Assembly: GCA_012839765.1 (NCBI GenBank)
Contig: DUMW01000027.1
Coordinates: 1,137 to 65,136, forward strand
Source: Bacillota bacterium
GTDB lineage: Bacteria; Bacillota; Limnochordia; DUMW01
Length of the DNA: 64,000 nucleotides
Direction: 5' to 3'
The notes beneath the pieces were generated by a model. It was not told the origin of the DNA and did no database searches. It saw nothing but the letters and a program-made list of their open reading frames with translations. The position numbers were made by a program, and so were the translations under genes. This document shows, piece by piece, positions 18,249-56,950 of this stretch (positions are counted from its first letter, which is position 1; each line of letters opens with the position of its first letter).

Positions 18249-20036
18249 TTGGGTCTCATCAGAATGTTGACACCTCTGGAAACAATGTCATTGATCGTCC
18301 TTTGTTTGCTACTGCTGTTGGTTGTGGGCAACACCCTCATCCCGGTGGCTTGGGCAGAATCGGCAGATCCCGCCGCGCCATCAGAGGAAGACTCCGTGGT
18401 GGTACTGCCCACCCTGGTAGTCCTCTTCACCCAAAGCGACCTGAAGACCGCCACCCAACAGGATATTGCTGCCTTCCATGGCCAGATGGCGGCCATCAAG
18501 GAGTTCTTTATTCAAGAGGGTGGCCAACACATCGAGCTGGAGCTGGACTACCTACAGATCGATCGGCCTTTGGCCCTGGCGGAATTCGGTTCCCCGGGGG
18601 ACGGACGCTATCATCTGTATGGTAACAACGCGCTCCCCTTCCTGCGGCAAAGTGGCATTGATCTTACATACTACCCCATCATCATCGCCTTCTGGCCGTG
18701 GCGGGCCCCAAACGAGTTCGGCGCCACCAAGGCCTACGGTGGAGCCGCGGAACGTCCCTTCTTCGGTCGCTACCTCTACGGCACCTACAACTCCCAGGGC
18801 GTCTTCGATGGGGACTACCGGGTCATCAGCCGGGTGGGGATCCATGAGACCCTGCACAATATGGATGCCCTCTTGCACCATTCGGGAGTGGAACGGTTCT
18901 GGCATGCGGATCATATGGCTACTTTGATGCCAGAATTACTGTCGGAAATCCCCGGTGCCTTCTTACCCCGTTTTACCGATGAAGAGATGCTGGAACTGGC
19001 AGAAAAGGAGAAGAACCGCCAATACTCTTTCCCTTGGCAGGATCAGATGGTCTTCTATCGTCAGATGATGCGGCGCACCACCCCGGAGGAATGGCGTGCC
19101 TTGAGTTGGGGATACCGAAAACCCCTCGAAGAGCTTAACCGCATCACCAACGACTACTACCTCGAACCCCTCTACAACAATATGTGGGTACCGGCCGATG
19201 ATCCGGTGTATGTGCCGGTGGTCCTGCGGGATCACGCAGGTCGCCCCGTCACCACGGCCACAGTGACCTTAGAAGACATCACCCTCAGCTATGAACCTTA
19301 CACCCATACCGACGGGCCCTTGGTCCTGTACGAAAACGGCTTGTACTGTGGGTGGGTGGACCCCGGCGTAGAAGGGACCCTCAGCATCCAGGCCCAGTTC
19401 GGGGACCAGCACCTCAACTCCCAAGTGACCATCCACCGTCAACGCCGGATAATGCTCCAGGCCCCGGCCCGGGTGGAATGGACGATGGATGCCGAACCAA
19501 TGGGCAAGATTCCGGTCACCGTCACCTGGGAACATCTTCCCCTTGACCAGGTTATCCTGGAGGAGCTGCCCACCGATTACGTCCTTAGCGCCAGCTGGCA
19601 GGGTGCTCCCCTGGAGGTGGAACCGGTGGAGGGACATCGGTTCAACGTGCTGGTAACTCCGGATCTAGTTGAAAAACCCACTTCCTTGGAAATTACCCTC
19701 GAGGTAGAAAGTCCCCTGGGTTACGATCAGCGGCCCGTGATAGTGGATAGCAAGGTTTCTTGGTCCATGCGGGTTCGGCCGGTGCGGGGAGAAGTAGGTC
19801 AACCAACGGAAATCGAAGTGTTGGTCCTGGCCGGTGGTCGGCCCAGCAGTGAAGAGTTTGAGCTCTGGGGCGAAACCGCGGATGGGCAGAGGCTGACCTT
19901 TGTACAGCGCAGTACCGGTCGCTATGTGGCTTCCTGGACACCCCAGATTGCGGGCACCGTTGCCATGAAAGTGCACGCGCGTAAGGCCAATACCACCTAT
20001 TACACCACCGAGGAGTTTACCGTCGAGGTACAGTAA
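18249..20036 (+). CDS. Secreted protein with HExxH motif (putative metallopeptidase-like), unknown function
   Basis: TTG start with SD GGAGGAG. Hydrophobic signal segment MSLIVLCLLLLLVVGNTLIPVAWA. HETLH (HExxH) is at about residue 195. The C-terminal beta-rich repeats are mine by eye only. Confidence 0.5.
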   Translation: MGLIRMLTPLETMSLIVLCLLLLLVVGNTLIPVAWAESADPAAPSEEDSVVVLPTLVVLFTQSDLKTATQQDIAAFHGQMAAIKEFFIQEGGQHIELELDYLQIDRPLALAEFGSPGDGRYHLYGNNALPFLRQSGIDLTYYPIIIAFWPWRAPNEFGATKAYGGAAERPFFGRYLYGTYNSQGVFDGDYRVISRVGIHETLHNMDALLHHSGVERFWHADHMATLMPELLSEIPGAFLPRFTDEEMLELAEKEKNRQYSFPWQDQMVFYRQMMRRTTPEEWRALSWGYRKPLEELNRITNDYYLEPLYNNMWVPADDPVYVPVVLRDHAGRPVTTATVTLEDITLSYEPYTHTDGPLVLYENGLYCGWVDPGVEGTLSIQAQFGDQHLNSQVTIHRQRRIMLQAPARVEWTMDAEPMGKIPVTVTWEHLPLDQVILEELPTDYVLSASWQGAPLEVEPVEGHRFNVLVTPDLVEKPTSLEITLEVESPLGYDQRPVIVDSKVSWSMRVRPVRGEVGQPTEIEVLVLAGGRPSSEEFELWGETADGQRLTFVQRSTGRYVASWTPQIAGTVAMKVHARKANTTYYTTEEFTVEVQ

Positions 20037-28771: not shown

Positions 28772-30058
28772 CTACAGGATCAAACACCAGATCTCCTCTA
28801 GCCTTTGAAAGTAAAAGGAGACTATTTGCGTATCGCTTTGCAACACCCGCCCGAAGCTGTCCCGCTGGGTGTTACGCAGTTCCACCTCCACCTGGATCAC
28901 CTGGCGATACACCTCGTTAGTACGGGGATGGCGCCACTCCTCAAGTTCCCTTTCACCAATAATCCCAATCCGGTCCACATATCGATACTGGGTTTCCACG
29001 AAGTTGCGGGCAAAGAAACGGAAATCACCCTCCTCCCACTGGACCTTCAACCGAGGGTGCAAATGCCACTGGTAGATGCGGTCAAAGTCCCGGTCCACCA
29101 AAAGCCACTTGAGGATGGAGTCCACCGAAGCATTGCGGGGATCCGCTTCCCTTAAAGTAGCCGCCAGGAAGGGATGGGCGAACATGTCACCAATATCTAG
29201 TTCCATCCAGCTGCCTTCCCGGCCCGCGCTGAAGTAGGCCGCGCCCACCAGGAAGAGATAAACCAAGGCCACCAGACCCACCACCTGCCAGATGGAGGCC
29301 CGGGTGCTCCCTTCCCGCCGCACCGGTGAAAGGGCGGGGACGGACCGCCGCGCATATTCCTCCGCACTGAGGGTAGACTCCACCTGCAGATTCAATTCAT
29401 AGGGGATCTCCCGTTTAACCAGGTCCACCGTCCGCTTTTCGTCACTGGGATCAAAGGGACCGGCAACGATTAGAACACCGTCTTCCCACCGAGCGGAGAC
29501 TAGACCCAGGCGGGGCAGGCCAAAGCGTAAAGCAAGGTGATATCTCACCAGCCCCGCAACCATCCCCGGCCGATCCCAAAGGCCACCCAGGGCCAAGAAC
29601 CAGTGCAGACTCCGGCGGTAAATCCAAAAAAGCATAGGCACCACCAGAATGGTCAACAGGCGGTAAAGCTCCGTCACCGCCTGACTGGCTGCGGTGGTAC
29701 CGGCCCACCACCAGACCAGGATCAGTAAAGCCACAAGCACCGCATCGACCAGCCGAAAACGCTGGAACCGTAGGGGGAGCCACCGGGTAAGCAGCACATA
29801 CAAAGCTCCGGTGCCCAACAAAACAAGGAACAACCCCATAAGATCCCGCGGAAAAAACACCGTCTTCCCAAAAGACCCGATATACTTCAACACCACCAGC
29901 ACCGGCCCCACGGGCAACGCGGCCAGGGCACCCAATAGGCAGGCCAAAGGCAGGGGTAGGGCAGAGCTCAACCCCCCACAACAGGTACTTTCCAGTTGGG
30001 GATCTCGGACACAGCGCAGGGCCAAATCCAGCGACCCGCGGACTTTACGAAACCACAC
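28772..30058 (-). CDS. Membrane protein, unknown function (4-5 N-terminal TM helices plus soluble C-terminal domain)
   Basis: The track ORF runs to 30220, which would abut the divergent gene start at 30224. GTG at 30058 (SD-like GGGGGTGG) or ATG at 29839 are more plausible starts. TM segments and a C-terminal domain (VDRDFDRIYQWHLHPRLKVQWEEGDFRFF) carry no known motif. Confidence 0.45.
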   Translation of the reverse strand: MWFRKVRGSLDLALRCVRDPQLESTCCGGLSSALPLPLACLLGALAALPVGPVLVVLKYIGSFGKTVFFPRDLMGLFLVLLGTGALYVLLTRWLPLRFQRFRLVDAVLVALLILVWWWAGTTAASQAVTELYRLLTILVVPMLFWIYRRSLHWFLALGGLWDRPGMVAGLVRYHLALRFGLPRLGLVSARWEDGVLIVAGPFDPSDEKRTVDLVKREIPYELNLQVESTLSAEEYARRSVPALSPVRREGSTRASIWQVVGLVALVYLFLVGAAYFSAGREGSWMELDIGDMFAHPFLAATLREADPRNASVDSILKWLLVDRDFDRIYQWHLHPRLKVQWEEGDFRFFARNFVETQYRYVDRIGIIGERELEEWRHPRTNEVYRQVIQVEVELRNTQRDSFGRVLQSDTQIVSFYFQRLEEIWCLIL

Positions 30059-30223
30059 CGTACCACCCCCGGGGGTGCATAAATTTCTTCTTAAGGAAAC
30101 ATCTTCTCCCCGGTTACCCTCAACTCCTGCCCCCGGCCCAGGAGGAATTTCCCCCGCCCCAGCGAAAGATAAGTAGATATGTAATAATATACGACAAATT
30201 AACCGACGGTGAGGTAACAACCC

Positions 30224-31513
30224 ATGTCTCCAGTTTCCCTAAAGGACTTAGCTATGTTTTACTTCCCCCTGTGTTCCACCAGTTTGCTGTTTTACCTGAT
30301 CCAGACCCTCCTCCATGGGGGATTGGCCCGCACCCCGGATTTCCCCCTCTCCCTCAGCGCCTTCGCCCTGGCCCGTAGCCTCACCCTCATGATCTGCGCC
30401 TACGTCTTTACCATCCCCCAGACCATTACCGCCCTGGCCAAGGACGCGGTCACCTTCCAGCGGGTCTGCCGCCATTTCCAACACCTCACCCTCCTCACCG
30501 GAGGGTTACTCGCCTTCCTGGGCTGGACCCCCCTGGGTCCCTGGGTCTTTACCCGCCTTATGGGGGCCACGGGCCCTTTGCTCATCAAAAGTCAGCAGGC
30601 GATCCGGCTCCTGGTCCTGTTGCCCTTGGTAATGACCCTCCACCAAAGGGAAGTAGGGCTCCTCATCAGAGCGAAGAAGACTCACCCGATTCTCGTCGGC
30701 GCCCTGATCCAACTGGTCACCGTCGGCCTGTTAGTCTTCGGCCTCGGTGCCACCGGTCTGCCCGGGGGTGTGGTGGGATCCCTAGCCTATGTGGGCTCCT
30801 TTGGGGCCAACTACTTATTTTTGCGCCAGGTGCCCAAGGCCCCGTGGCCAAAGGAAGATTCAGCAGAATCCCTGGCCCTGACCGCCATTAGGAACTTTTC
30901 CCTACCGTTGATCCTCACCGCCTTTGTGGGCATGGTCTTTCCACCGCTGGTCAATGCCGCGCTTACCCGTTCTCACAATCCCAATTTGTTTCTCCCGGCC
31001 TTTGAAATTGGCTTCCACTATGGTATGCTACTGGTTGGTCCGCTTTTTCAGCTGCACCAGTGCGGTTTGAATTTCACCGCTAAGGCAAACCGGCGGCAGG
31101 TTACAAGATTCACACCCCTGGTGAGCGGCGGCAGTGTTTTGGGTTTGTTACTTGCAGGGTTTACCCCCGTAGGACGTTGGGTCTTCCTGCGTCTTTTGGC
31201 CGTGGATTTACCGGTAACCCAGGAGGCCATTAGGGTAGTACAGGTCATGGCGATCCTGCCCGTACTTGCCGGTGCGAGGGAGTATCGGTGGGGCCTTTTC
31301 ATGGGAACAGGGCAAGCAGCCTACATCGGCCGGGGAAAGGCCCTGAATCTGGGGATAACCTTGGCGGGTGTGGTGATAGGTATCCGGTGGTTTCCCTGGC
31401 CCTCCGCGGTCAGTGCTTTGTGGCTGTTGGTCCTGGCGGAGGTGGTGGAGTACGGCTATCTTCGTTCCCGCCCGGTGATACAGTGCGTAACCCAAGACCA
31501 CCACTGTCCTTAA
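30224..31513 (+). CDS. Polytopic membrane protein, MATE/MOP-superfamily-like (paralogue of 51400..52761)
   Basis: About 12 TM helices. It shares blocks with the 51400..52761 product (TPLGPWVF/TPLGNWVF, LHQCG/LHQCLF, EAIRVVQVMAILPVL/ARGVLGVFALFPI, REYRWGLFMGTG/REFCWGIIMQNG). Confidence 0.55.
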   Translation: MSPVSLKDLAMFYFPLCSTSLLFYLIQTLLHGGLARTPDFPLSLSAFALARSLTLMICAYVFTIPQTITALAKDAVTFQRVCRHFQHLTLLTGGLLAFLGWTPLGPWVFTRLMGATGPLLIKSQQAIRLLVLLPLVMTLHQREVGLLIRAKKTHPILVGALIQLVTVGLLVFGLGATGLPGGVVGSLAYVGSFGANYLFLRQVPKAPWPKEDSAESLALTAIRNFSLPLILTAFVGMVFPPLVNAALTRSHNPNLFLPAFEIGFHYGMLLVGPLFQLHQCGLNFTAKANRRQVTRFTPLVSGGSVLGLLLAGFTPVGRWVFLRLLAVDLPVTQEAIRVVQVMAILPVLAGAREYRWGLFMGTGQAAYIGRGKALNLGITLAGVVIGIRWFPWPSAVSALWLLVLAEVVEYGYLRSRPVIQCVTQDHHCP

Positions 31514-31645
31514 GTCTAAAACTTCCCAGCACCAGGACCGTCCTGGGGGGGAGTCTGTGCCCAAACTTCGAGAAATTATGCACGAATTGCCTTGACATTG
31601 CCCTAGGCATGTGTTATTGTTGACTCGGGAAAAGTTTCACGAGTC

Positions 31646-31921
31646 TTGGGCTGGGGAGTGGGTGCCGTGATTACCATCGAAGTTTGCGTCGGTAGCTCCT
31701 GTTACTTGAAAGGGGCCCACCAGATTGTCCAATACCTCCAGGAGGCCCTGCAAGAAGCGGACATCACCGACGCGGTGGAACTGCGTTGCGTCTTCTGTCT
31801 TGGTCAATGCCAGAACGGTCCCAATCTGTTGGTGGATGGTAAACTGTTAAGCGGCATCACACCGGAAAAGGCCAAGGAACTGATTCACCAGGTCATCCTG
31901 CCGCAGGTGAGGGGAGAGTAA
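31646..31921 (+). CDS. Thioredoxin-like [2Fe-2S] ferredoxin, small (HfsA-like position)
   Basis: Cys pattern CVGSSCYLKGA...CVFCLGQCQNGPNLLVDG resembles the C-terminal Trx-like 2Fe-2S domain of HydA/NuoE. The likely true start is GTG about 31667 (VITIEV) behind GGGGAGTGGG. Its stop overlaps the hydS start (TAATG). Confidence 0.7.
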   Translation: MGWGVGAVITIEVCVGSSCYLKGAHQIVQYLQEALQEADITDAVELRCVFCLGQCQNGPNLLVDGKLLSGITPEKAKELIHQVILPQVRGE

Positions 31922-33645
31922 TGGGGATCATCACCACAAACATTGCACATTGCAAAGACTGCTATAAATGCGTTCGCCGGTGCCCGGTAAAGGCTATTCG
32001 GGTGATCGATGGCCATGCCCAGGTCTGGGATGAACTATGTGTACATGATGGATCCTGCATAAATGTGTGCCCCCAGGGGGCCAAGAAGGTCGAGTCCCAC
32101 CTGGAGTTGGTGCAGGAGCTCCTAAGGGGACAAGCACCGGTCATCGCCAGCATTGCTCCTTCCTTCACCGCGGTATGGCCTAGGCAGGCCAAGGCCTTGC
32201 CTGAAATACTCACCCAATTAGGGTTTACCGCCGTTCAGGAGACAGCAGTGGCGGCGGAAGTCGTGGCCCAGGCACATCGACGGGAGCTTTTGGACCGCAA
32301 GGCTAAGGGCGGACCACTTCCCGTCATCACCAGCAGCTGTCCGGCCGTGGTAGAGCTGATTGAAAAACATTTTCCTGAGAGTGTAGAACTGATTGCCAAA
32401 GTAGTATCCCCGATGATCCTCCACGGGTATATGCTGAAAGAACAATACGGGCCGGACAGCCGCGTGGTTTTCATCGGGCCCTGCGTGGCCAAGAAGGCGG
32501 AAATGCACATTGAAGAACACCGGGGAAGCATTGATGCGGTGCTCACTTTCACAGAACTGGAAGAGCTTTGCCAGGGCGCATCCTTGGACCTCTCTGGCAC
32601 TGCCGGGGATTTTTCCCCGCCCCACCCAAACCTAGCCCGACTTTTCCCCTTAGAAGGTGGGTTAATCCGGACTGCTGGGCTGGATCCCTGTATGCTGGCC
32701 GGAGGCCTGCGGGCCATCAGCGGCATCCAAGAGTGCATTGAGTTCTTAACGGAGCTTCGGCAGGAGCGACCCGCAAACCTAGAGATGGTGGAGCTCATGT
32801 CCTGCAAGAACGGTTGCATCGGCGGCCCGGCCCTGGGGTCGGCCCGTTCCTTGGAGGTACGCCGGCAACGGGTCATTCATTGGTACGAGCAGGAAAGGAA
32901 AACACCAGCGCCCATGGCGGCTTTAGACGAAATCCCCAGGCGCCACTACCGGGTAAGGCCAGAGGCCCAGCTGCCCACCCCCTCCGAGGAGGAGATCCGT
33001 AAGATCCTGGCCCAAATCGGCAAGTTCAGCCCCGAAGATGAGCTCAACTGTGGGGCCTGCGGTTACGATACTTGCCGGGAGAAGGCCATTGCGGTCTACC
33101 GGAAGGCCGCAGAAATCGAAATGTGCATCCCCTATATGCGCAAGCGGGCCGAATCTTTGGCCAATGTGATTATGGAATCCATTCCCAATGGGATTGTGGT
33201 CTGTGACCGGGATTTGAACATTGTCTCCTTGAATCCCGCAGCAGAGAAGATGTTTCTCTGCAAGCTAGACCAAGTAAAGGGCAAGAAGCTGGGATACCTA
33301 CTGGATCCCAAACATTTTCGGCAGGCCCTGTCCACCGAGGAACTGACCATTGTGGAGGTGGCCTACCCGAATTACAACTTAACAACAAAGCAATACATCC
33401 TCTATGTAAAACAAGAGGGCATCGTCATTGGCATTTTCGTGGATATCACCCAGGAGCAAAGGCAACAGGCTAAGTTGACCTCCCTGCGACAGGAAACCTT
33501 ACTCAAGGCCCAGGAGGTCATCGACCGGCAGATGCGGGTCGCCCAAGAGATCGCCGGCCTTTTAGGGGAGACCACCGCCGAGACCAAGGTGCTGCTTACC
33601 CGATTGACCAACTTCATCAGGGAAGAGGGTAACGGTCATGGGTGA
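31921..33645 (+). CDS. hydS: Sensory [FeFe]-hydrogenase-like protein HydS (Fd domain + H-cluster domain + PAS)
   Basis: N-terminal 2x[4Fe-4S] motif (CKDCYKCVRRCP...CVHDGSCINVCP). H-cluster motifs L1 TSSCP (first Cys of canonical TSCCP replaced by Ser), L2 GPCVAKKAE and L3 ELMSCKNGCIGGP. C-terminal PAS (NGIVVCDRDLNIVSLNPAAEKMF). Confidence 0.85.
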   Translation: MGIITTNIAHCKDCYKCVRRCPVKAIRVIDGHAQVWDELCVHDGSCINVCPQGAKKVESHLELVQELLRGQAPVIASIAPSFTAVWPRQAKALPEILTQLGFTAVQETAVAAEVVAQAHRRELLDRKAKGGPLPVITSSCPAVVELIEKHFPESVELIAKVVSPMILHGYMLKEQYGPDSRVVFIGPCVAKKAEMHIEEHRGSIDAVLTFTELEELCQGASLDLSGTAGDFSPPHPNLARLFPLEGGLIRTAGLDPCMLAGGLRAISGIQECIEFLTELRQERPANLEMVELMSCKNGCIGGPALGSARSLEVRRQRVIHWYEQERKTPAPMAALDEIPRRHYRVRPEAQLPTPSEEEIRKILAQIGKFSPEDELNCGACGYDTCREKAIAVYRKAAEIEMCIPYMRKRAESLANVIMESIPNGIVVCDRDLNIVSLNPAAEKMFLCKLDQVKGKKLGYLLDPKHFRQALSTEELTIVEVAYPNYNLTTKQYILYVKQEGIVIGIFVDITQEQRQQAKLTSLRQETLLKAQEVIDRQMRVAQEIAGLLGETTAETKVLLTRLTNFIREEGNGHG

Positions 33646-34789
33646 TTTTTACGTGGAAATTGGTATCAGCTGCCTGCCTAAGTACACGGAAGAGCTGTGT
33701 GGCGACACCGTCCGCACCACCGCCACCGAAGCTTCGGTGGTAGGGGTGGTCTCCGACGGGTTAGGCAGTGGGGTGAAGGCCAGTATCCTCTCCACCCTCA
33801 CCACCAGCATCGCAGCCCGCATGTTTACTTCCGGGGTTTCCCTGGAGGACATGATGGAAACCATCGGGGCCACCTTGCCCCTTTGCAGGGAGCGAAAGAT
33901 CGCTTATGCGACCCTCACGGCCCTGGAGATCCGCCGGACCGGACAGGCCTATTTAGCCGAATTCGATGCTCCCGAGGCATTGCTCCTCCGGGGGGGACAG
34001 CCGGTGGTCTTAGAACGCACCCCCCGGCGGGTGCGGGGAGGCACTTGGACGGTGAACGAAGCCCACTTCTGGATGCAAGAGGATGATTACCTGGTCTGTG
34101 TCACCGATGGGGTGATCCACGCAGGGATCGGTGCCAAGCTGGCCCTGGGACTGGGGGAAACGGGACTGCGGAATTATCTTGAGCAGGAACTTACCCCCCA
34201 GATGGAAGCCCAGACCGTAGCGGACCGGATCCTGGATTACGTCCACTTCCTGTATGATGGCCGGCCGGGGGACGATGCCACGGCCCTGGTGCTCAGGACC
34301 CGCAAGCCCCGGCGGTTGATGGTACTGGTGGGCCCCCCTAAGGATCCCGCCCTGGATCCGGTACTGGCGCGGAAACTGGCGGCCTTTCCCGGAAAGAAAG
34401 TAATCTGCGGAGGCACCACCGCTACGCTTGTGGCCAGGGAGTTGGAAAGGCCCCTGACCATTGATCTGGAGCAATTTCCCGTGGATCATCCACCCAGCGG
34501 CCAGATCCCGGGAATCGACCTGGTGACCGAGGGAATCATTACCCTCTGTACCACCGCCGAGATGCTCACAGACCAGAGGGATAGATACCAAGAAAACTCA
34601 CCTGCGGGGCAGTTGAGTCAACTGCTTTTGGAAAGCGACTACATCGACTTTCATGTCGGCGGGGCCATCAATCCGGCCCACCAAAACCCGGATTTGCCCT
34701 TTGACCTGGCGCTGAAACAGCAGGTGGTAAATAAAATCGCCGCGGCCTTGAAAGAAAAAGGCAAGCGGGTGCAACTGCAGTTTTACTAA
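33638..34789 (+). CDS. PP2C-type Ser/Thr phosphatase (SpoIIE/RsbU family) with extra C-terminal domain
   Basis: GVVSDGLGSGVKASILS (metal-binding DG.G.G block) and TDGVIHAGIG. A C-terminal domain of about 170 aa has unknown function. It overlaps the hydS stop by 8 nt. Confidence 0.8.
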   Translation: MGDFYVEIGISCLPKYTEELCGDTVRTTATEASVVGVVSDGLGSGVKASILSTLTTSIAARMFTSGVSLEDMMETIGATLPLCRERKIAYATLTALEIRRTGQAYLAEFDAPEALLLRGGQPVVLERTPRRVRGGTWTVNEAHFWMQEDDYLVCVTDGVIHAGIGAKLALGLGETGLRNYLEQELTPQMEAQTVADRILDYVHFLYDGRPGDDATALVLRTRKPRRLMVLVGPPKDPALDPVLARKLAAFPGKKVICGGTTATLVARELERPLTIDLEQFPVDHPPSGQIPGIDLVTEGIITLCTTAEMLTDQRDRYQENSPAGQLSQLLLESDYIDFHVGGAINPAHQNPDLPFDLALKQQVVNKIAAALKEKGKRVQLQFY

Positions 34790-34808
34790 ATAAAGGAGTG
34801 AATCGTTC

Positions 34809-35321
34809 GTGGCAGCCAAACAAACCACTTCGGAGGAAATCCGCAGTTTTGCCAAGGTGAACGCGATCATTGAAGCCCACGGCAAAAGACCTGAAGCCTT
34901 GATCGCCATCCTCCAGGAGATCCAGGAGGAATACAGATACTTGCCCGAAGAGGTTCTCGCCTATGTGGCAACGGCGCTGAACATCTCACCGGCAAAGGTG
35001 TACGGTGTGACCACCTTCTACGCCCAGTTTTCCACCGTGCCCAAGGGAAAATACGTCATCCAGGTGTGTGATGGTACCGCCTGTCACGTGCGGGGGTCCA
35101 ATCCGCTGATCGAGACCATCCAAAAGACCCTGGGGATTTCCGAAGAGAAACCCACCAGTGATGACCTGCTCTTTACCCTGGAGACGGTTTCGTGTCTTGG
35201 CGCCTGTGGTCTGGCCCCGGTGATGCTCATCAACGACAAGGTCTTTGGAGAGATGACACCGGAGAAAACCAAGGAGTTGCTGGAGAAATTGAAGAGTGGG
35301 GAGGTAACCCTTGATGATTAA
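34809..35321 (+). CDS. hydC: NuoE-like [2Fe-2S] subunit of the trimeric NADH-dependent [FeFe] hydrogenase (HydC)
   Basis: Trx-like 2Fe-2S motif CDGTACHVRG...SCLGACGLAPVMLIND. GTG start with SD AAGGAGTGA. It lies 19 nt after the PP2C gene. Confidence 0.9.
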   Translation: MAAKQTTSEEIRSFAKVNAIIEAHGKRPEALIAILQEIQEEYRYLPEEVLAYVATALNISPAKVYGVTTFYAQFSTVPKGKYVIQVCDGTACHVRGSNPLIETIQKTLGISEEKPTSDDLLFTLETVSCLGACGLAPVMLINDKVFGEMTPEKTKELLEKLKSGEVTLDD

Positions 35322-37197
35322 ATCTGTCGCGGATCTGCGCAAGATTAAAGAACAGTTTATCAATACCACCAAACGGGAACGGAAGCGCATCTCCGTCTGC
35401 GCAGGTACCGGTTGTGTGGTCAACGGATCTTTGAAGGTCATCAAGGCCTTCGAAGAGGAAATCAAGAAGCACGGCCTTTTGGTGGACCTGGAAATGCTCA
35501 CCGAAGGCTCCGAAGGTGTACGGGTCTCCAAGACCGGTTGTCACGGATTCTGTCAGATGGGGCCCTTGGTATACATCAACCCTGGGGATATGTTGCTGGT
35601 GAAGGTAGCCCCCGAGGATGTGCCGGCTATCGTCCAGTCCTGCATCATTGAAGACGGGCTGCCCCCGGAGAAGAACCAGTATCACCACCCCCAGACCAAC
35701 CAAACCTATATCAAAGGTGAGGAGATCCCCTTCTACAGCCAGCAGAACAGGCAAGTGCTAGCCAACTGCGGCCACGTGGATCCCACCAACCTGGAAGAAT
35801 ATGTGGCCAATGATGGGTACTTCGCCCTGGCCAAGGTCATTACCGAATACACCCCGGAAGAGGTTTGCCAGGTGGTAATCGATTCGGGACTGCGGGGCAG
35901 GGGAGGCGGCGGTTTCCCCACGGGGCGAAAGTGGCTGTTTACCCGGCAGGCCCAGGGCGATAAAAAATACGTTGTCTGTAACGGAGACGAAGGGGACCCC
36001 GGCGCTTTCATGGACCGGTCGGTCATGGAAGGTGACCCCCACAAGTTAATCGAAGGCATGATCATCGCCGCCTATGCCGTAGGCGCCGACGAGGGATATA
36101 TCTACGTCCGGGCCGAGTATCCCTTGGCCATCCAAAGGTTGCAGCAAGCCATCGCGGATGCGGAAGAACACGGTCTTTTAGGCGACAATATTCTCAACAG
36201 CGACTTTTCCTTCCGCTTGCATATCAGCAAAGGCGCCGGCGCCTTCGTGTGCGGTGAGGAGACGGCCCTGTTGGCCTCCATCGAAGGCGGTCGGGGAATG
36301 CCACGGCCCAAACCTCCCTATCCTGCCACCAGTGGATTGTTTGGCAAGCCCACGGTGATCAACAACGTGGAGACCTTTGCCAACGTGCCCTTGATCCTGT
36401 TAAAAGGCGCCGAAGCCTTCCGGGCGGTGGGGACGAAGACGAGCCCTGGCACCAAGACCTTCGCCATTACCGGTGAAGTGGCCAACACGGGACTGATCGA
36501 AGTGCCCATGGGCACTAAGCTCGGCGACATCGTCTACAAGATCGGTGGCGGCCTGCGGTCCGGCAAGGACTTCAAGGCGGTCCAGATCGGTGGTCCTTCG
36601 GGTGGATGCCTCACCAAAGAGCATCTGGACGTACCCTTGGACTTTGACTCCTTGAAGGAATATGGTGCCATGGTTGGTTCCGGCGGACTGGTCATCATGG
36701 ACGAAGGCACCTGTATGGTGGAAGTAGCACGCTTCTTCATGAAGTTCGCCCAAAACGAATCCTGTGGTAAGTGTGTTTTGTGTCGCGAAGGTACCAAGCG
36801 GATGCTGGAGATCCTGGATAAAATCGTTGCGGGCCAGGGTGAACTGGCGGACCTCGATCTTTTGGTGGAAATTGGGGAAGCGGTGAAGGACGGATCCCTA
36901 TGCGGCCTGGGTAAGACAGCGCCCAACCCGGTACTCACCACCCTCCAGTACTTCAGGGACGAATATCTGGCCCACGTTGTGGACAAACGGTGTCCCGCTG
37001 GAGTCTGTCAGTCCCTGAAACGGTTTGTCATTGATCCGGAGAAATGCCGCGGTTGCAGCAAGTGTGCCCGGATTTGTCCTGCCAATTGTATCAGTGGCAA
37101 GGTCAAGGAACCCTTCGTCATTGATCAAGAGGCCTGCCTGAAGTGCGGCAGCTGTGTAGCGGCTTGTCCCTTCGGCGCAATTGAGGAGGTGGCTTAA
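35311..37197 (+). CDS. hydB: NuoF-like NADH/FMN-binding subunit of [FeFe] hydrogenase (HydB)
   Basis: N-terminal Trx-like 2Fe-2S domain. NuoF core GRGGGGFPTGRKW, the SLBB domain, and C-terminal 2x[4Fe-4S] (CRGCSKCARICP, CLKCGSCVAACP). Confidence 0.9.
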   Translation: MMIKSVADLRKIKEQFINTTKRERKRISVCAGTGCVVNGSLKVIKAFEEEIKKHGLLVDLEMLTEGSEGVRVSKTGCHGFCQMGPLVYINPGDMLLVKVAPEDVPAIVQSCIIEDGLPPEKNQYHHPQTNQTYIKGEEIPFYSQQNRQVLANCGHVDPTNLEEYVANDGYFALAKVITEYTPEEVCQVVIDSGLRGRGGGGFPTGRKWLFTRQAQGDKKYVVCNGDEGDPGAFMDRSVMEGDPHKLIEGMIIAAYAVGADEGYIYVRAEYPLAIQRLQQAIADAEEHGLLGDNILNSDFSFRLHISKGAGAFVCGEETALLASIEGGRGMPRPKPPYPATSGLFGKPTVINNVETFANVPLILLKGAEAFRAVGTKTSPGTKTFAITGEVANTGLIEVPMGTKLGDIVYKIGGGLRSGKDFKAVQIGGPSGGCLTKEHLDVPLDFDSLKEYGAMVGSGGLVIMDEGTCMVEVARFFMKFAQNESCGKCVLCREGTKRMLEILDKIVAGQGELADLDLLVEIGEAVKDGSLCGLGKTAPNPVLTTLQYFRDEYLAHVVDKRCPAGVCQSLKRFVIDPEKCRGCSKCARICPANCISGKVKEPFVIDQEACLKCGSCVAACPFGAIEEVA

Positions 37198-39195
37198 GTG
37201 GGTAAACTGACCCTGAATAACCGAGAAATAACCTTTACCGATGAGAAGAACCTGTTGGAGGTTATCCGGAACGCAGGCATCGACCTGCCGACCTTTTGCT
37301 ATCATTCCGATTTGAGTGTCTACGGCGGATGCCGCATGTGTGTAGTGGAAATCGGCGGAATGGGCGTGGTGGCTTCCTGCTCCACACCGCCTAGCGACGG
37401 TATGGTGGTACGCACCCACACCGCAAGACTCCAAAAGATCCGCAAACTGGCTTTGGAGCTGATCTTGGCCAACCACGATCGGGAATGCACCACCTGTAAG
37501 AAGAGCGGCGATTGCCACCTGCAGGATCTCTCCCACCGGCTCGGGGTAGATGAGATCCGCTTCGGACACCGGGACAAACACCTGCCCATCGACGCCAGCA
37601 GCCCCAGTGTAGTGCGGGATCCCAACAAGTGCATCCTGTGCGGCGACTGTGTGCGCATGTGCGAAGAGATCCAGGGCATCGGCGTCCTCGGCTTTGCCAA
37701 CCGCGGTTCCGATGTGGTGGTCACCCCCGCCTTCGGCAAGAACATGGCGGAAGTGGACTGTGTCAGTTGCGGCCAGTGCGCGGCGGTGTGCCCCACGGCG
37801 GCCCTGACCATCAAACATGAATATGACAAGGTCTTTGAACAGATCAATGCGGGCAAAACCGTAATTGCCCAGATCGCCCCCGCGGTACGGGTGGCCATCG
37901 GCGAAGCCTTTGGGCTGCCCTCGGGGGAGAACAACATCGGCAAACTGGTGGCGGCCTTGAAATACCTGGGCTTCAGCAAGGTCTTCGACACCAGCGTCAC
38001 CGCAGACCTGACGGTGCTAGAGGAGACCGAGGAATTTTTGGAGCGGGTCACCACCGGCAGCAACAACTTGCCCCTGTTTACCTCCTGCTGCCCGGCCTGG
38101 GTGAAGTTTGCGGAGCAGTACTATCCGAACCTGTTGCCGCACCTATCTTCCTGCCGGTCGCCCCAGCAGATGTTCGGTTCGGTAGTGAAGCGGTATTACT
38201 CCGAGAAACTGGGCGTAAAGCCAGAGGACATTTTCCTGGTATCCATCATGCCCTGTACCGCCAAGAAGTTCGAGGCCAAGCGGCCTGAGTTCACCACCAA
38301 CGGCGTGGCCGATGTGGACCTGGTGCTCACCACCCAGGAAGTGGTGGCCATGTTGAAAAACGCAGGCATCGACTTCCCATCCCTGGATGTGGAGCCCTTT
38401 GACAGCCCCTTCGGCTTTGCCACCGGAGCGGGAATCATCTTTGGTGTCAGCGGTGGCGTCAGCGAAGCAGTGCTCCGCTATGCCGCAGAAAAACTGGGGG
38501 CCAACATCAACAACGGTGAGGTAGAGGTGGTAAAGCACATCAGTCCCGAGGGCATCACCGTCTTGACGGCCCAGCTAGGCGATCAAACCCTGAAACTGGG
38601 GGTGGTCAGCGGCTTGGCCAATGCCCGGGAACTAGTTGATAAACTAGATGAACTGGATCTGGACATCATCGAAGTGATGGCTTGCCCCGGCGGTTGTGTC
38701 AACGGTGCCGGCCAACCCCAAAGCTTTAACGGTGACCGGCGTAAGCAGCGGACCAAGGGCTTGGTAAATGCCGAAAAGATGACCCAACTGCGCAAGTCCC
38801 AGCAGAACCCCAGCTTGATGAACTTGTACAACGAGTGGCTGGAGAAGCCCGGCAGCACAGTGGCCCATCAGGCTCTGCACACCGAATACAAGCCCCGGCG
38901 GCGCTTAGCAGGGCTGGGAATCACCCTGGAGGAAGGGGCCCAGACCGATGTGGAAGTCTGTATCGGAACCTGCTGCTACCTGCGGGGTTCCTACGACATC
39001 CTGCAGCAGATCTCCAAGGAGATCCAGACGGCTGGGTGTGAAGAAAAGGTTAACTTGAAGGGCACCTTCTGCTTTGAACAATGCAGCGGTGGCCCGATGG
39101 TAAGAATCAACGATACCCTGATTGGCAACGTCACCCCGGAGAAGGTACCGGAGCTAATCAAGCAGATTGTGGAACTAACGACAGAAAAACAGTAA
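37198..39195 (+). CDS. hydA: [FeFe] hydrogenase catalytic subunit (HydA, NuoG-like N-term + H-cluster + C-terminal Trx-like 2Fe-2S)
   Basis: N-terminal 2Fe-2S (CRMCVVEIGG). H-cluster motifs L1 FTSCCPAWV, L2 MPCTAKKFE and L3 EVMACPGGCVNGAGQP. C-terminal CIGTCCYLRG...FCFEQCSGGPMV. GTG start. Confidence 0.9.
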   Translation: MGKLTLNNREITFTDEKNLLEVIRNAGIDLPTFCYHSDLSVYGGCRMCVVEIGGMGVVASCSTPPSDGMVVRTHTARLQKIRKLALELILANHDRECTTCKKSGDCHLQDLSHRLGVDEIRFGHRDKHLPIDASSPSVVRDPNKCILCGDCVRMCEEIQGIGVLGFANRGSDVVVTPAFGKNMAEVDCVSCGQCAAVCPTAALTIKHEYDKVFEQINAGKTVIAQIAPAVRVAIGEAFGLPSGENNIGKLVAALKYLGFSKVFDTSVTADLTVLEETEEFLERVTTGSNNLPLFTSCCPAWVKFAEQYYPNLLPHLSSCRSPQQMFGSVVKRYYSEKLGVKPEDIFLVSIMPCTAKKFEAKRPEFTTNGVADVDLVLTTQEVVAMLKNAGIDFPSLDVEPFDSPFGFATGAGIIFGVSGGVSEAVLRYAAEKLGANINNGEVEVVKHISPEGITVLTAQLGDQTLKLGVVSGLANARELVDKLDELDLDIIEVMACPGGCVNGAGQPQSFNGDRRKQRTKGLVNAEKMTQLRKSQQNPSLMNLYNEWLEKPGSTVAHQALHTEYKPRRRLAGLGITLEEGAQTDVEVCIGTCCYLRGSYDILQQISKEIQTAGCEEKVNLKGTFCFEQCSGGPMVRINDTLIGNVTPEKVPELIKQIVELTTEKQ

Positions 39196-39270
39196 GGGAG
39201 GTCGACCCCGATCGCTCAGCTCGTTTCCATACCGAAGCCAACTTTAGAGAGACTGCCCCGGTACCTGCGC

Positions 39271-39855
39271 GTGCTGTACCGAGAGAAGGAAAGGGGCACC
39301 GCCTTCATCTCCTCGGGGGCATTGGGACATGAAACCGGGGTCGACGAATTCCAAGTACGCAAAGATCTGCAGTATGTGAAGATCAGTGGCCGCCCGGGGA
39401 AAGGCTACTTCATCGATGACCTCATCTACAGCATCGAAGAATTGTTGGGACTGAACAAGGTAAATGAGGCGATCGTCATTGGTGCCGGTCGCCTCGGGCA
39501 GGCCATCAGCCTTTATCCGGGATTTGACCGTTATGGTCTGCGCATCGTCGCCCTTTTTGACAACGATCCCTTCAAGATCGGACAAAAGGTAGGGAACAAG
39601 CCCATCCTCAATGTGGCGAAGATGCCGGAATTAATTAGAAGGATGGCCATCCCAATGGCGGTGATTACCGTACCTGCCGAACACGCACAGGCCGTGGCCG
39701 ACCAAGCCATCCTAGGCGGGGTGCGAGCCCTTTGGAACTTCGCACCGGTGGTCTTGGAAGTGCCACCTGGCGTCCATGTGCGTAACGAGGATCTTGCCGT
39801 TGGGTTGGCATCTTTATCCCATCACTTGGCCAAGGCCACGAAGCGAAGAATCTAA
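39271..39855 (+). CDS. rex: Redox-sensing transcriptional repressor Rex
   Basis: Rossmann GAGRLGQAI and C-terminal Rex blocks. The conserved N-terminal wHTH residues (IPKPTLERLPRYLRVL) are encoded in-frame upstream of the first canonical start (GTG 39271), so the true start is uncertain (see findings). Confidence 0.8.
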   Translation: MLYREKERGTAFISSGALGHETGVDEFQVRKDLQYVKISGRPGKGYFIDDLIYSIEELLGLNKVNEAIVIGAGRLGQAISLYPGFDRYGLRIVALFDNDPFKIGQKVGNKPILNVAKMPELIRRMAIPMAVITVPAEHAQAVADQAILGGVRALWNFAPVVLEVPPGVHVRNEDLAVGLASLSHHLAKATKRRI

Positions 39856-39902
39856 GACGACCCCCGCACACTGTGGATCCTGGCCCTTCTTCGGACACGT
39901 CA

Positions 39903-39964
39903 AGGTTACAGATCCCTGCCATAGGCTCAAAAGGCCATACCCACACCGCAAGGATCTGTAACCT
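39903..39964 (+). other. Long hairpin (13-bp perfect inverted repeat, 36-nt loop) downstream of rex
   Basis: AAGGTTACAGATCC ... GGATCTGTAACCT. There is no U-tract. It lies in a 400-bp intergenic region before hslO. Confidence 0.6.
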
Positions 39965-40252
39965 CAGCCCCCCTTAACGTGAAAATACTTGATTTCCTTC
40001 GTTTCGGATATCCACTGCCCACAACCCGGAAGACAAAGCACAGACCATTCACTAGACCACAGGATACCTCCCAGGAACTTATCCCCAAGATCGCCGGGTG
40101 TATCCAATCGGTCCGCCCCGTGGTACAATACACCTAAAGCCAATACTGCTTTGGCCTGGCGACATGCCGCAGGACACCAAAGGGTGATGCGGTTCATCGT
40201 CGTAAACTCTTTGGGAGTTTTTGTAGTATAATCATCTGGGAGTTGATTATCT

Positions 40253-51399: not shown

Positions 51400-52761
51400 T
51401 CACAGCTTTTCCTGGATAGTCATCCGCTGGCGCAAGGCTTTACTGCCTGCGGGATGATGCCAGATCACAAGACTCTCCACGATCTCCCCACTGGTATAGC
51501 CGATCGCTCCGGCAATGGCCGGATGAACCGAAAGTACTAGGCTAGTGAGCAATGCCACCACGGCCGCGATCAGATTCGCGGTCTTCGCCCGACCGATAAT
51601 CCCCGTACTACCATTCTGCATGATAATCCCCCAGCAAAACTCCCGCCAGGCACAGGCAATGGGGAACAGGGCGAAGACCCCAAGGACACCCCGCGCAGTC
51701 TTGGTCACCGTCGGGGATACACCAATAACAGACCCAAAGACCCAGTTTCCCAGGGGCGTGAGGGCCAAAGAAAGCATCACCAAAGTCAGCACAAGGCCCA
51801 CCAGCAAACAGAACCGGCGCACCACACCCTCCTCATCGGCACCATACACAAACAGACACTGGTGAAGGGAACGGGCGGGACCAACGATGACAGTCATCAG
51901 ACTCAAGGCCACGGCATAACCAGCCAAGTCTTCCGCCGGTGCCAAGGAAAACCTGGCAATCCCCGCCTGGATCACCGAGGGGATCAAGGCCGCGATAAGG
52001 CTCATCACCCCGAGAGGAATAAAGAAATTCCGTACCATCCCCATGGTTAGCTCCCCGTGGTCCTTGGAGGGAAGGTGAGTCACTCCCCGGGAAAGCGAAC
52101 CGAAGGACCAAACAAAGTAACTAAGAATGATTAACAGCTCAAAACCGATGCCGGCGACCCATGCGATACTGCCGGCCTCAATGCCAGTGAAGACCTGACC
52201 TGCCACCACCCAAGAAAGGAAGAAGAACAAGACCACCACCCGCATCGCAGTGGCAACGGCCATGATTCCCGTCCGTACCAAACCAACAGCCATTCCTTGA
52301 TAGGCATTCCTCAAAGTTTCTACAAAGGGGAGGAAAGCGGCAATCCGCAGGGCCCGATAGGCAAGATCCAACTGATCAGGATCGTCGATCTTAAACACAT
52401 ATTGCAGCACAAGCCCCCCCAGGGGTGTATAGCCCAAAAGGCTCAGCAGGAAAAAGACAACAGAGATGACCTGCCAGTTAAACCTGCGAACAAGTCGATA
52501 GCTTTTCTGATCGTCCACAAAGGCTAAGAAGACCTGGGTAGACATCAGTTCCGGTGCCTTGATAACATTCACCATCGACTTGACGATACCAAAGACGGCA
52601 ATGTTAACCTCTGGATTGGGCAAACGAGCCAAAGCGCCATCTACGATGGAATGGGTTGAAGCGATCAGAAATGGTGTGGCCCCCAAAGGGAGGAAAAAGC
52701 GCAACAACTTCCAGAAAGTCACTTTAGTTCCCAATGGTCTATCCCTTTCTAACCCGCGCAT
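51400..52761 (-). CDS. Polytopic membrane protein, MATE/MOP-superfamily-like (paralogue of 30224..31513)
   Basis: See shared blocks listed for 30224..31513. About 12 TM helices. Confidence 0.55.
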   Translation of the reverse strand: MRGLERDRPLGTKVTFWKLLRFFLPLGATPFLIASTHSIVDGALARLPNPEVNIAVFGIVKSMVNVIKAPELMSTQVFLAFVDDQKSYRLVRRFNWQVISVVFFLLSLLGYTPLGGLVLQYVFKIDDPDQLDLAYRALRIAAFLPFVETLRNAYQGMAVGLVRTGIMAVATAMRVVVLFFFLSWVVAGQVFTGIEAGSIAWVAGIGFELLIILSYFVWSFGSLSRGVTHLPSKDHGELTMGMVRNFFIPLGVMSLIAALIPSVIQAGIARFSLAPAEDLAGYAVALSLMTVIVGPARSLHQCLFVYGADEEGVVRRFCLLVGLVLTLVMLSLALTPLGNWVFGSVIGVSPTVTKTARGVLGVFALFPIACAWREFCWGIIMQNGSTGIIGRAKTANLIAAVVALLTSLVLSVHPAIAGAIGYTSGEIVESLVIWHHPAGSKALRQRMTIQEKL

Positions 52762-53005
52762 CGCCTAAAACCGTACAGACTCATCTCTATGCACGGACTA
52801 AGTAGAAATGTTAGGCTGTTCCTAATGGTTGATGTGGTCGTGGCATAGTGGAGTGAGTAAGTCACAGAAAACATCCCGAGGTCGTGTAGCAATTAGGAAG
52901 CGCCTTTCTCTGTAGTGTAGTCTACCCCTTGGTTCTTGTCAAGAATAGACAAAAAGGTGAGAATAGGTCTTGTGTATATCTAATGGTATGTGGTAGAATA
53001 TCTCA

Positions 53006-53135
53006 TGTTAATAACTGAATGTCATGTTACTGTATGTAACTTCGGAAGCGATGAACCCTGATTGTATGTGGTCACTTTGGATCAGGGTGAGCTAGTAGTG
53101 AAACCGGCCGAGGTATCGGCCGGTTTGTTTTTTTT
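53006..53135 (+). ncRNA. Putative small structured RNA / cis-leader with its own intrinsic terminator (orphan terminator on + strand)
   Basis: Promoter-like TTGTGT(52970)-18nt-TAGAAT(52994) with an upstream TG. Hairpin CCCTGAT...ATCAGGG (53056-53087). Terminator AAACCGGCCGA-ggta-TCGGCCGGTTT+GTTTTTTTT (53101-53135). No + strand CDS lies upstream (the neighbour is minus-strand); the pilin gene starts 85 nt downstream. Confidence 0.4.
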
Positions 53136-53219
53136 GTGGAGAACGATGACGAAGGGAGGGAAGCACAACTCTTAGCCTCTGCCGTTAATACCGTAATCTA
53201 TTCGAGGGGGGAATAATCT

Positions 53220-53657
53220 ATGTTTAAATTATTTAGAAAGAAAAATGAAGAAGGATTTACCATTGCAGAATTGTTAATCGTTATTGTAGTGTTGGGAATC
53301 CTCGCCGCCATTGCCATCCCTAGTTTCACTGGTCTCCAGAAAAGGGCCCGCAGGGCAGAACTAGAGAGCAATGGAAGGGCCATTGTGCTGGCTTTGGAGA
53401 TGTATAAGATTGAAACAGGAAAGTATCCCGACGTTCAAACGCAAGAGAATAATATTAACGAGCTAAAAGTTCCCCTTCAGGGTTATCTGACCAATGTTGA
53501 ACAGATCCTGCAAACAGTCCCCAGTGGAACCTACAAGAAAGATACACCAGAAGGGGGGTATACACTTACCTTGGGCGATGGAGATGATACTGAGGTTACT
53601 TTCGTGAACGGCGTACTTCAAACGGAATCTGAAACGGAATCTAAACCGGAACCGTAA
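53220..53657 (+). CDS. Type IV pilin / pseudopilin (prepilin with class III leader)
   Basis: MFKLFRKKNEEG|FTIAELLIVIVVLGILAAIAIP. This is the prepilin peptidase cleavage motif (G/F) with Glu+5 and a hydrophobic helix. SD GAGGGGGGAA. No pilus assembly genes are nearby. Confidence 0.85.
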   Translation: MFKLFRKKNEEGFTIAELLIVIVVLGILAAIAIPSFTGLQKRARRAELESNGRAIVLALEMYKIETGKYPDVQTQENNINELKVPLQGYLTNVEQILQTVPSGTYKKDTPEGGYTLTLGDGDDTEVTFVNGVLQTESETESKPEP

Positions 53658-53719
53658 TCACGGGGCGTACAGGGAGATACGACGGTTAGGTAATCGACCT
53701 GACGTTGCAGAGTCGGATT

Positions 53720-56938: not shown

Positions 56939-56950
56939 AAAGGTCCAAAG

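Follow-up and report, generated by a model that had tools for sequence, protein, structure and literature searches.

How is hydrogen, when it reacts with a sensory [FeFe] hydrogenase, made to adjust the enzymes by which hydrogen is produced? The question is raised by a locus from a Bacillota bacterium of the Limnochordia (lineage DUMW01; GenBank assembly GCA_012839765.1, contig DUMW01000027.1), in which the gene of a putative sensory hydrogenase, HydS, is followed by the gene of a PP2C phosphatase and then by the genes of a catalytic hydrogenase, HydCBA. The locus occupies positions 31646-39855 on the + strand of what is here called the window, i.e., the whole stretch of 64,000 nucleotides (nt) that was analysed. 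The interpretation preferred here, to which a probability of about 0.6 is given, is that it constitutes one operon of ~8.2 kilobases (kb), probably controlled by Rex and built from three functional blocks, with signalling from HydS to the phosphatase by the mechanism proposed below. The first block would be a conserved signalling cassette, consisting of a thioredoxin-like 2Fe-2S protein, HydS and PP2C, the second a predicted T. maritima-type, NADH- and ferredoxin-dependent, electron-bifurcating HydCBA, and the third Rex itself.

Seven genes and their transcription

The identities of the genes were taken from the list of open reading frames (ORFs) of the window and from Pfam and NCBIfam assignments, which are mutually consistent and give seven tightly spaced ORFs, all on the + strand. 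The first gene, fdx (31667-31921, or from 31646), encodes a small thioredoxin-like, HfsA-like [2Fe-2S] protein with Cx4C...Cx3C ligands, which has 84 residues when translation begins at the GTG at 31667, as gene callers choose, and 91 residues when it begins at the TTG at 31646. Then follow hydS (31921-33645), whose product of 574 residues has two Fer4 domains, Fe_hyd_lg_C, the FeS domain PF04060 and a PAS domain in Pfam, and the gene of a SpoIIE-family PP2C of 383 residues (33638-34789; PF07228). The hydrogenase genes proper are hydC (34809-35321; a NuoE-like 2Fe-2S subunit of 170 residues), hydB (35314-37197, with an alternative start at 35311; a NuoF-like FMN/NADH subunit of 627 residues) and hydA (37198-39195; the catalytic [FeFe] hydrogenase subunit of 665 residues), and the last gene is rex (39211-39855; NF003994), which encodes a redox-sensing repressor of 214 residues if it begins at the ATC at 39211. 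A first-pass annotation, made from the letters of the window, had named and placed the same seven genes, and all these identifications are borne out.

HydA contains a full H-cluster site, with the motifs TSCCP, MPC and MACPGGC, and among solved structures its best match is T. maritima HydA (7p5h_A, E value 9.7e-177, residues 3-653). Together with the NuoF-like HydB and the NuoE-like HydC, it completes the three-subunit make-up of the T. maritima-type group A3 HydABC. The likeness to that complex (PDB 7p5h) covers the whole of HydA, the 2Fe-2S domain at its C-terminus included, and extends to HydB, where an N-terminal 2Fe-2S domain is combined with C-terminal ferredoxin domains holding two [4Fe-4S] clusters, as well as to HydC. 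The gene order in the window is C-B-A, and bifurcation is here predicted from the genes.

The junctions between the genes are as tight as the first-pass annotation had claimed. The stop codon of fdx and the start codon of hydS share one nucleotide in TAATG, hydS and the PP2C gene overlap by 8 nt (ATGGGTGA), and the 19-nt gap between the PP2C gene and hydC holds the ribosome-binding site AAGGAG. Further on, hydC and hydB overlap by 8 nt, and hydA follows hydB with a gap of 0 nt. The locus recurs at 99.5-99.9% identity in several metagenome assemblies from biogas fermenters.

From these distances it is natural to ask whether all seven genes are read from one promoter. Near the 5' end of the operon a motif scan of the window finds a single + strand promoter-like site, TTGACA-17-TATTGT with a TG before the -10 hexamer (31592-31620), and no further one on this strand between 31621 and 39855. 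A scan of the + strand for terminators gives no match in any intergenic junction; the terminator-like matches lie either 5' of the operon or within fdx, hydS and rex, and their number, 8, is to be compared with 9.9 expected. The gap between the PP2C gene and hydC thus contains neither a terminator-like nor a promoter-like site in these scans, and no credible Rfam family is present in the operon region. About 50 nt past the rex stop codon there is a stem-loop (39903-39962, + strand) with a 13-bp stem but without a U-tract, the arms of which form a perfect 12-bp inverted repeat, GGTTACAGATCC ... GGATCTGTAACC, and which may be a 3'-end structure (z = -2.76 for the 135 nt at 39856-39990). A relative with a PP2C that is 55% identical (L089/L090) has the identical order of seven genes, in which the two critical junctions measure 22 and 13 nt, and the promoter layout of L089, TTGACA-17-TACAGT, matches that of the window.

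It is therefore likely, as judged from sequence, that the operon is transcribed as a single unit: there is one promoter-like site at its 5' end, nothing that resembles a terminator or a promoter separates the PP2C gene from hydC, a relative whose PP2C is 55% identical keeps this tight order, and the Rex operators of relatives, described below, precede the first gene and not hydC. An alternative, which we regard as quite unlikely, is that fdx, hydS and PP2C are transcribed at a low level while hydCBA and rex are transcribed from a promoter inside the 3' end of the PP2C gene. Sensors are usually needed in far fewer copies than enzymes, and in the related loci L008-L010 the gap between the PP2C gene and hydC has grown to ~250 nt, so that there would be room for a promoter in those relatives. 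Yet the ~250-nt gap of L008 has neither a promoter-like site nor a Rex box, the gap in the window is just 19 nt with a content limited to the ribosome-binding site, and the + strand of the window lacks any promoter-like site from 31621 onwards.

The position of the Rex operator is the same in several relatives. Boxes that match TTGTGAAN4TTCACAA perfectly occur in L008, L009 and L015, and boxes with one mismatch in L010, L013, L020 and L089; they lie just 3' of the promoter of the first gene, ~30 nt upstream of that gene, and no Rex box is found between the PP2C gene and hydC in the relatives, even where this gap is ~250 nt. The window has in this place a degenerate operator-like site, TCGGGAAAAGTTTCACGA (31625-31642, + strand), which begins 4 nt past the -10 hexamer, has three mismatches and is the positional equivalent of TTGTGACATATTTCACAA in L089. 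Since a scan of the window for Rex boxes returns solely sites with three mismatches, 2 of them against 2.2 expected, the site is not significant alone, and it is retained because its position equals that of the operators in relatives.

The rex gene itself begins in an unusual way. The first-pass annotation had put rex immediately downstream of the hydrogenase genes, and the adjacency stands; the list of ORFs begins rex with the GTG at 39271 (194 residues), which is probably too late. The reading frame extends 5' of this GTG as IPKPTLERLPRYLR, which is the N-terminus of a Rex protein, and when it is read from the ATC at 39211 the product matches NF003994 at 241.9 bits (cutoff 130) over model positions 7-213 of 217. 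Only this start gives the full match, to a complete protein with winged-helix and Rossmann domains, and a start at 39271 would truncate the DNA-binding domain. From its TAA at 39193 the frame has no ATG, GTG or TTG before the GTG at 39271. The ATC is preceded by a ribosome-binding site, AGGGAGG (39195-39201), and L089 has an ATG at the equivalent position. As the ATC is identical in four independent metagenome assemblies, it is not a sequencing error, and translation of Rex probably begins at this non-canonical codon, which would mean either that a rare start codon is used or that Rex is poorly translated. With a likely start only 15 nt past the hydA stop codon, rex probably lies inside the operon rather than merely 3' of it. 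A read-through fusion of HydA and Rex was also considered, as the two genes share a frame and are separated by just the TAA and five codons, but in L089 they are out of frame and the shared frame is probably a coincidence.

Rex and HydS have both been proposed as regulators of bifurcating hydrogenases (PMC10084766). That Rex is part of the control in this lineage is suggested by the operators just 3' of the first-gene promoter in relatives, while the decayed operator together with the non-canonical rex start hints that this control is weakened in the present organism. As a separate observation, good Rex boxes in L008-L010 also precede an 868-residue AdhE-like gene that lies 3' of rex (~16500-19700), which gives the succession Rex box, sensor cassette, hydCBA, rex, Rex box and adhE.

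The cassette in related loci

To place the locus among its relatives, consider the 80 genome loci that carry the same PP2C family, here given L-numbers and annotated by BLAST with the proteins of the window. In every one of them (80/80) a sensor gene of the type that ends with a PAS domain and a conserved tail stands directly 5' of the PP2C gene, usually overlapping or abutting it. A small 2Fe-2S ORF is detected 5' of the sensor in 66/80 loci, with its four Cys at least 90% conserved. What follows the PP2C gene is far more variable: a monomeric HfsD-like hydrogenase of the hfsABCD type in 18 loci, hydC in 13 (with hydCBA as in the window and, in several, then rex), a TnpB-like gene in 8, a 288-residue gene without identification in 4, a convergent hydA in 3, and unrelated or opposite-strand genes in the remaining loci. 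In ~13 further loci hydCBA stands directly 5' of the cassette. The gene order of the window recurs in L007-L015, L020 and L027, Atribacterota included.

The layout is thus common, contrary to the first-pass view of the locus as a special compact arrangement, and its class has a name already. HydDB defines [FeFe] group C3 as a phosphatase-linked, putative sensory class (PMC5037454), and C3-type sensors are co-located with group A hydrogenases (PMC8163306). The Ser/Thr phosphatase gene adjacent to the sensor gene, by which C3 is defined, is present here as the PP2C gene overlapping the end of hydS, and the locus belongs to this known class (C3, also M2f). The hfsABCD locus of T. saccharolyticum, in which HfsB is a PAS hydrogenase and HfsC a Ser phosphatase (PMC11837493), has the same first three genes in the same order, HfsA-like, HfsB and HfsC, and the PP2Cs of the hfs-type loci surveyed match the one in the window over the full length of the latter, C-terminal domain included. 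The two arrangements part at the fourth gene, which is HfsD, a monomeric ferredoxin-linked hydrogenase, in T. saccharolyticum, whereas hydC-hydB-hydA-rex follows here. Genetic work on hfsB and hfsC has indicated a regulatory role (PMC5707799).

How far HydS differs from a catalytic hydrogenase was judged from an alignment of its H-domain with those of 67 PP2C-linked orthologues (n = 68) and with HydA of the window. All Cys ligands of the H-cluster are kept in motifs L1, L2 and L3, and PF02906 is matched at 168 bits. In L1 (TSSCP, residues 137-141, positions 32329-32343, + strand; TSCCP in HydA) the first-pass annotation had seen a diagnostic Ser-for-Cys replacement. The Ser is real and no indexing artefact, as it aligns with the proton-relay Cys (C299 in CpI numbering), but it is not diagnostic: this position holds Cys in 35 of the 68 sequences, Ala in 16, Ser in 13 and Thr in 2, and T. 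maritima HydS has Ala (PMC10055695). The change that is consistent within the group, on this alignment, is Met353 to Gly in L2 (GPCVAKK, where HydA has MPCTAKK), since GPC is found in 65/68. In L3 (LMSCKNGC, where HydA has VMACPGGC) Met497 is retained, as in only 6/68, in place of the Ser, Asn or Leu that PP2C-linked HydS usually have. Of the second-sphere residues, C299 and M353 are thus replaced and M497 is not. The S267M variant of T. maritima HydS (TmHydS) has been predicted to respond at low H2 only (PMC10055695); by analogy, a HydS with a natural Met at this position might be set for low H2, a property that would be fitting in a biogas habitat rich in syntrophs.

Behind the H-domain, PF04060 is matched at residues 375-404, with the cluster motif Cx2Cx4Cx16C (CGACGYDTC-x16-C) adjoining the PAS domain, and PAS families are matched at residues 416-511, as the first-pass annotation had proposed for the C-terminus. 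The PDB holds no close solved relative of HydS. As they are described, R. albus and T. maritima HydS share with the present protein two [4Fe-4S] clusters, the H-domain, the Cx2Cx4Cx16C cluster and PAS, a residue other than Cys at C299 and Met353 replaced by Gly, and their loci share an adjoining Ser/Thr phosphatase gene, a group A hydrogenase and Rex. Unlike TmHydS, which has Ala at C299 and Ser at M497, HydS here has Ser and Met, and the R. albus sensor is found with a ferredoxin-only hydrogenase and adhE, where HydCBA is found here.

In the PAS and tail region, which is the part of HydS that was examined in this respect, the most conserved stretch is the core of a helical tail 3' of PAS, QMRVAQEIAGLLGETTAETK. 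It includes the motif LLGETTAETK (residues 547-556, positions 33559-33588, + strand), which occurs once per locus in 75/80 loci, 10-31 residues from the C-terminus of the sensor, and for which neither Pfam nor the PDB gives a match. In six loci from Desulfobacterota (L038, L048, L055, L062, L074 and L084) the partner of PP2C is not HydS but a membrane sensor of 764 residues with the architecture sCache_3-HAMP-REC-PAS. These sensors share just PAS and the tail with HydS, with 20/20 identity in the tail core, and their loci still carry the small upstream 2Fe-2S gene with all four Cys. Since identical tail cores occur in sensors that are not hydrogenases and that pair with the same PP2C family, the comparison argues that the constant unit is the 2Fe-2S protein, the PAS-tail and the PP2C with its C-terminal domain, while the sensing domain can be exchanged. 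No description of the tail motif, of the nature of the PP2C C-terminal domain or of the sensor swap was found in the literature searched, coverage of which was incomplete. In L038, L048, L055 and L062 the gene after PP2C encodes a protein of 288-306 residues without a Pfam match.

The catalytic domain of the PP2C (residues 1-221, positions 33638-34300, + strand) is of SpoIIE/RsbU type within the PPM family, with PF07228 matched at 71 bits (cutoff 25) over residues 33-221 and with D23, D40, D157, D212 and D213 invariant in an alignment of 38 PP2C sequences. Foldseek returns as top matches SpoIIE (5mqh, E value 7.7e-16), 3pu9, the RsbU domain of Rv1364c and RsbX. The fold begins at residue ~4, so that there is no N-terminal regulatory domain or linker; what is extra lies at the C-terminus. 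The AlphaFold model has a predicted local distance difference test score (pLDDT) of 88.5 and a predicted template modelling score of 0.80 for the whole protein, and a pLDDT of 89.0 for the C-terminal domain alone. Full-length homologues number at least 8000, with ~380-398 residues each, and the closest named one is from a metagenome-assembled genome of the Limnochordia.

The C-terminal domain (residues ~222-383, positions 34301-34789, + strand) is alpha/beta and specific for the family, as judged from alignment and model, and its 160 residues are as conserved in the 38 sequences as the catalytic domain is, with invariant GPP, D240, GGTT (258-261), PP, E298-G299, T302, N345, H348-Q349 and K360. 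The first-pass annotation had called this part uncharacterised, and a domain search agrees: there is no Pfam or NCBIfam match even at E values up to 10, and no match to PDB sequence profiles. The best Foldseek matches are methylglyoxal synthases (MGS), UbiX, the CPS1 allosteric domain and PurH, all with E values of 0.006 or more and template modelling (TM) scores of 0.3-0.5; for 1vmd the probability is 0.96, the E value 0.023 and the TM score 0.41, which is a weak match. An hhalign comparison with E. coli MgsA has a probability of 46.6% over 43 columns only, and pairs CGGTTA..VAR with the phosphate-binding loop ATGTTG..ISR and LVTEGI with LISEGK. What the domain has in common with the MGS-like fold (MgsA, the CPS allosteric domain, the IMPCH domain of PurH) is a GTT(G/A) loop at a strand-helix junction. 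It differs from MgsA in that there is no significant sequence match, in that the His and Asp positions fall outside the matched stretch, and in that GPP seems to stand in place of AHD, the last being a visual reading without alignment. The models would thus allow, with moderate to low confidence, an alpha/beta domain of MGS-like kind in which one loop might bind phosphate, and on present evidence the domain is not counted as a member of the MGS fold. That the domain might be a module in wide use was considered and rejected: its profile finds 1277 matches among 1.8 billion representative proteins, and all of the 150 listed have it from about residue 217 of a protein of ~380-430 residues, a PP2C-like placement, or are shorter and likely fragments.

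The TnpB-like genes deserve a description of their own. In eight genomes from Bacillota and Calditrichota a TnpB/Cas12f-like gene of ~495 residues lies 3' of the PP2C gene on the same strand (L017 11180-12661; L021 11154-12710; L022 10266-11747; L033 11193-12782; L043 7110-8603; L056 11164-12684; L068 11180-12655; L071 11195-12583), at a distance of -13 to +31 nt, or 240 nt in L022. The proteins have another residue in place of the Asp of RuvC-I (GVSRG), mostly carry Gln for the Glu of RuvC-II, and retain the Zn ribbon; they match the NCBIfam family guided_TnpB at an E value of 4.7e-11, below the family cutoff, and Cas12f in the PDB at 3.5e-5. Most of the eight have a conserved non-coding element 3' of the gene (GTGCTTTTGCTGCCGCAC ... 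GCAGCTATCTAA) that resembles a guide-RNA scaffold. By these features the gene looks like a nuclease-dead RNA-guided regulator of TldR type that is linked with the H2-sensor cassette. The TldR clades described in the literature are associated with fliC, csrA and oppF. A 12-mer search for targets of the putative guide region in the genes' own loci gives matches at chance level only.

A proposed path from hydrogen to phosphatase

According to the mechanism proposed here, H2 would react at the modified H-cluster of HydS and thereby set the redox state of the accessory clusters, including the Cx2Cx4Cx16C cluster beside PAS. The PAS domain and the invariant helical tail would relay this redox state in trans to the translationally coupled PP2C, which would dephosphorylate a phosphoprotein encoded elsewhere, so that the expression of hydrogenase and fermentation genes, or the activity of the enzymes, is adjusted. 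The C-terminal domain of PP2C would serve either to dock the tail or to bind a phosphorylated ligand, and Rex would add control by the NADH/NAD+ ratio at the single upstream promoter. That the tail is the coupling element is suggested by its near-invariance (75/80), by a PP2C that has no N-terminal regulator and by nearest structures that are partner-switching phosphatases. In this account the identities of the genes, their coupling, the conserved cassette and the place of the operator in relatives are observations, and the sensing of H2, the contact of tail and PP2C, the substrate and the common transcript are inferred.

A model for such coupling is offered by RsbP/RsbQ and RsbU/RsbT of B. 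subtilis, whose PP2Cs share the SpoIIE/RsbU structural subfamily with the present one. In RsbP the order is PAS, coiled coil and PPM (PMC3183031), the sensor controls the phosphatase via the coiled-coil linker, and in related phosphatases this linker dimerises and activates the catalytic domains (PMC12143880). In the window, too, PAS and then a helical segment come 5' of the phosphatase, but PAS-helix and PP2C are separate polypeptides with genes that overlap by 8 nt, and the PP2C has a C-terminal domain that RsbP and RsbU lack. With a sensor gene that stops just where the gene of a PP2C without N-terminal regulator starts, the two proteins look, by analogy, like a split form of the RsbP architecture, in which the HydS tail would stand in for the fused PAS and coiled-coil linker of RsbP and RsbU. 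The likeness ends at the partners, since no RsbV/RsbW-type pair of substrate and kinase is nearby: Pfam tables show no STAS protein or RsbW-type kinase within the 64-kb window (a search with approximate seed sequences agrees and is weak by itself), and among the 80 neighbourhoods no family of kinases, STAS proteins or anti-sigma factors is found repeatedly. The first-pass annotation had likewise noted the absence of a kinase or anti-sigma partner nearby.

It is conceivable, though rather unlikely, that the cassette is a general redox sensor, in which the 2Fe-2S protein reports the state of the ferredoxin or NAD(H) pool to the PAS-tail and PP2C, the H-domain of HydS being one of several inputs or an electron conduit. 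In favour of this, the 2Fe-2S domains of HydC, HydB and HydA are similar to the small protein, which stays with PP2C even beside the Cache-HAMP-REC-PAS sensor, a protein that has no Fe-S domain. It is difficult to reconcile this, however, with an H-domain in which every H-cluster Cys ligand is kept and Met353 to Gly is strongly conserved, or with purified HydS enzymes that bind H2 and turn it over slowly (PMC10055695, PMC8163306). One step further would be to deny HydS a sensory role altogether and to see in it a catalytic or electron-transfer hydrogenase subunit of low activity, with a PP2C that has nothing to do with H2. The complete H-cluster site and a Met497 kept as in catalytic enzymes would fit, but the PAS domain with its invariant tail, the linkage to PP2C in 80/80 loci whatever type of hydrogenase adjoins, and the occurrence of the PAS-tail/PP2C pair with non-hydrogenase sensors make such a role very improbable.

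A different question is on what the phosphatase acts. If PP2C modified HydABC or fermentation enzymes such as AdhE post-translationally, rather than a transcription regulator, co-transcription would supply enzyme and modifier together, and the predicted common transcript with HydCBA as well as the lack of a STAS protein, anti-sigma factor or kinase nearby would be accounted for. In T. saccharolyticum, deletions in hfs shift alcohol dehydrogenase activity more than transcripts (PMC5707799), and adhE-like genes are present in 11/80 neighbourhoods. Against this stand the nearest structural relatives of the PP2C, which all dephosphorylate STAS-type regulators, the fact that PP2C is equally often beside a monomeric hydrogenase (18 loci) or last in its cassette, and the lack of any record of HydABC phosphorylation in the literature searched; we consider post-translational action hardly probable.

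Several points weigh against the proposed operon and signal path. To our knowledge, H2 sensing by any HydS has never been demonstrated in vivo. Contact between tail and PP2C is suggested by their co-occurrence in sequences rather than by a structure, the C-terminal domain is only weakly assigned to a fold, and neither the window nor the recurring genes of the 80 neighbourhoods offer a substrate, kinase or STAS protein. A promoter may be present inside the PP2C gene, the operator-like site is of a kind expected by chance, and as rex has no canonical start codon, control by Rex may be weak or decaying in the host. Finally, a 2024 review states that the mechanism of signal transduction by HydS is unknown (PMC11376134), in agreement with the first-pass annotation, which had called the H2-sensing and phosphatase mechanism biochemically unresolved.

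A bolder extension, offered as speculation and doubtful as a whole, takes the 2Fe-2S protein, the PAS-tail sensor and PP2C as a self-contained cassette, not described before, that needs no separate kinase or STAS protein. LLGETTAETK, with its three Thr, would then be what PP2C clamps or takes as its target, the counterpart that handles phosphate or binds a ligand would be the C-terminal domain, which has the GGTT loop and the invariant His, Gln and Lys, and the output in some lineages would be the nuclease-dead TnpB-like RNA-guided regulator encoded 3' of PP2C.

Surroundings and implications

Directly 5' of the operon, at 28772-31513, are two divergent ORFs of ~430 residues each without a Pfam family, and the + strand member of the pair ends ~80 nt before the promoter-like site. 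The gene after rex encodes an Hsp33 homologue. Farther away, an ORF of 1470 residues without a Pfam family on record (7516-11928) adjoins a DUF6063 gene in a cluster of genes for glycoside hydrolases (GH127, GH172, MGH1-like), and an ORF of 868 residues at 15291-17897, suspected to be AdhE, was rejected as such, being a glycoside hydrolase. The G+C content is 0.46-0.48 at 52001-60000, compared with ~0.55-0.58 in the remaining window; this stretch, which holds an AraC-family regulator and a URO-D-like gene, may be acquired DNA.

In the fermenters and syntrophs of guts, rumens and biogas reactors, H2 sensors of the [FeFe] type precede the enzymes by which these organisms chiefly produce H2. The locus in the window, taken by itself, leaves the overall picture of H2 sensing unchanged. 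The comparison with its relatives narrows the search, as it separates what is invariant, i.e., the PAS-tail motif, the 2Fe-2S protein and the C-terminal domain of PP2C, from what can be exchanged, i.e., the sensor domain and the type of hydrogenase. These features of the cassette make the transduction of the H2 signal testable, for example in tractable relatives such as Thermoanaerobacterium with its hfsABC genes.

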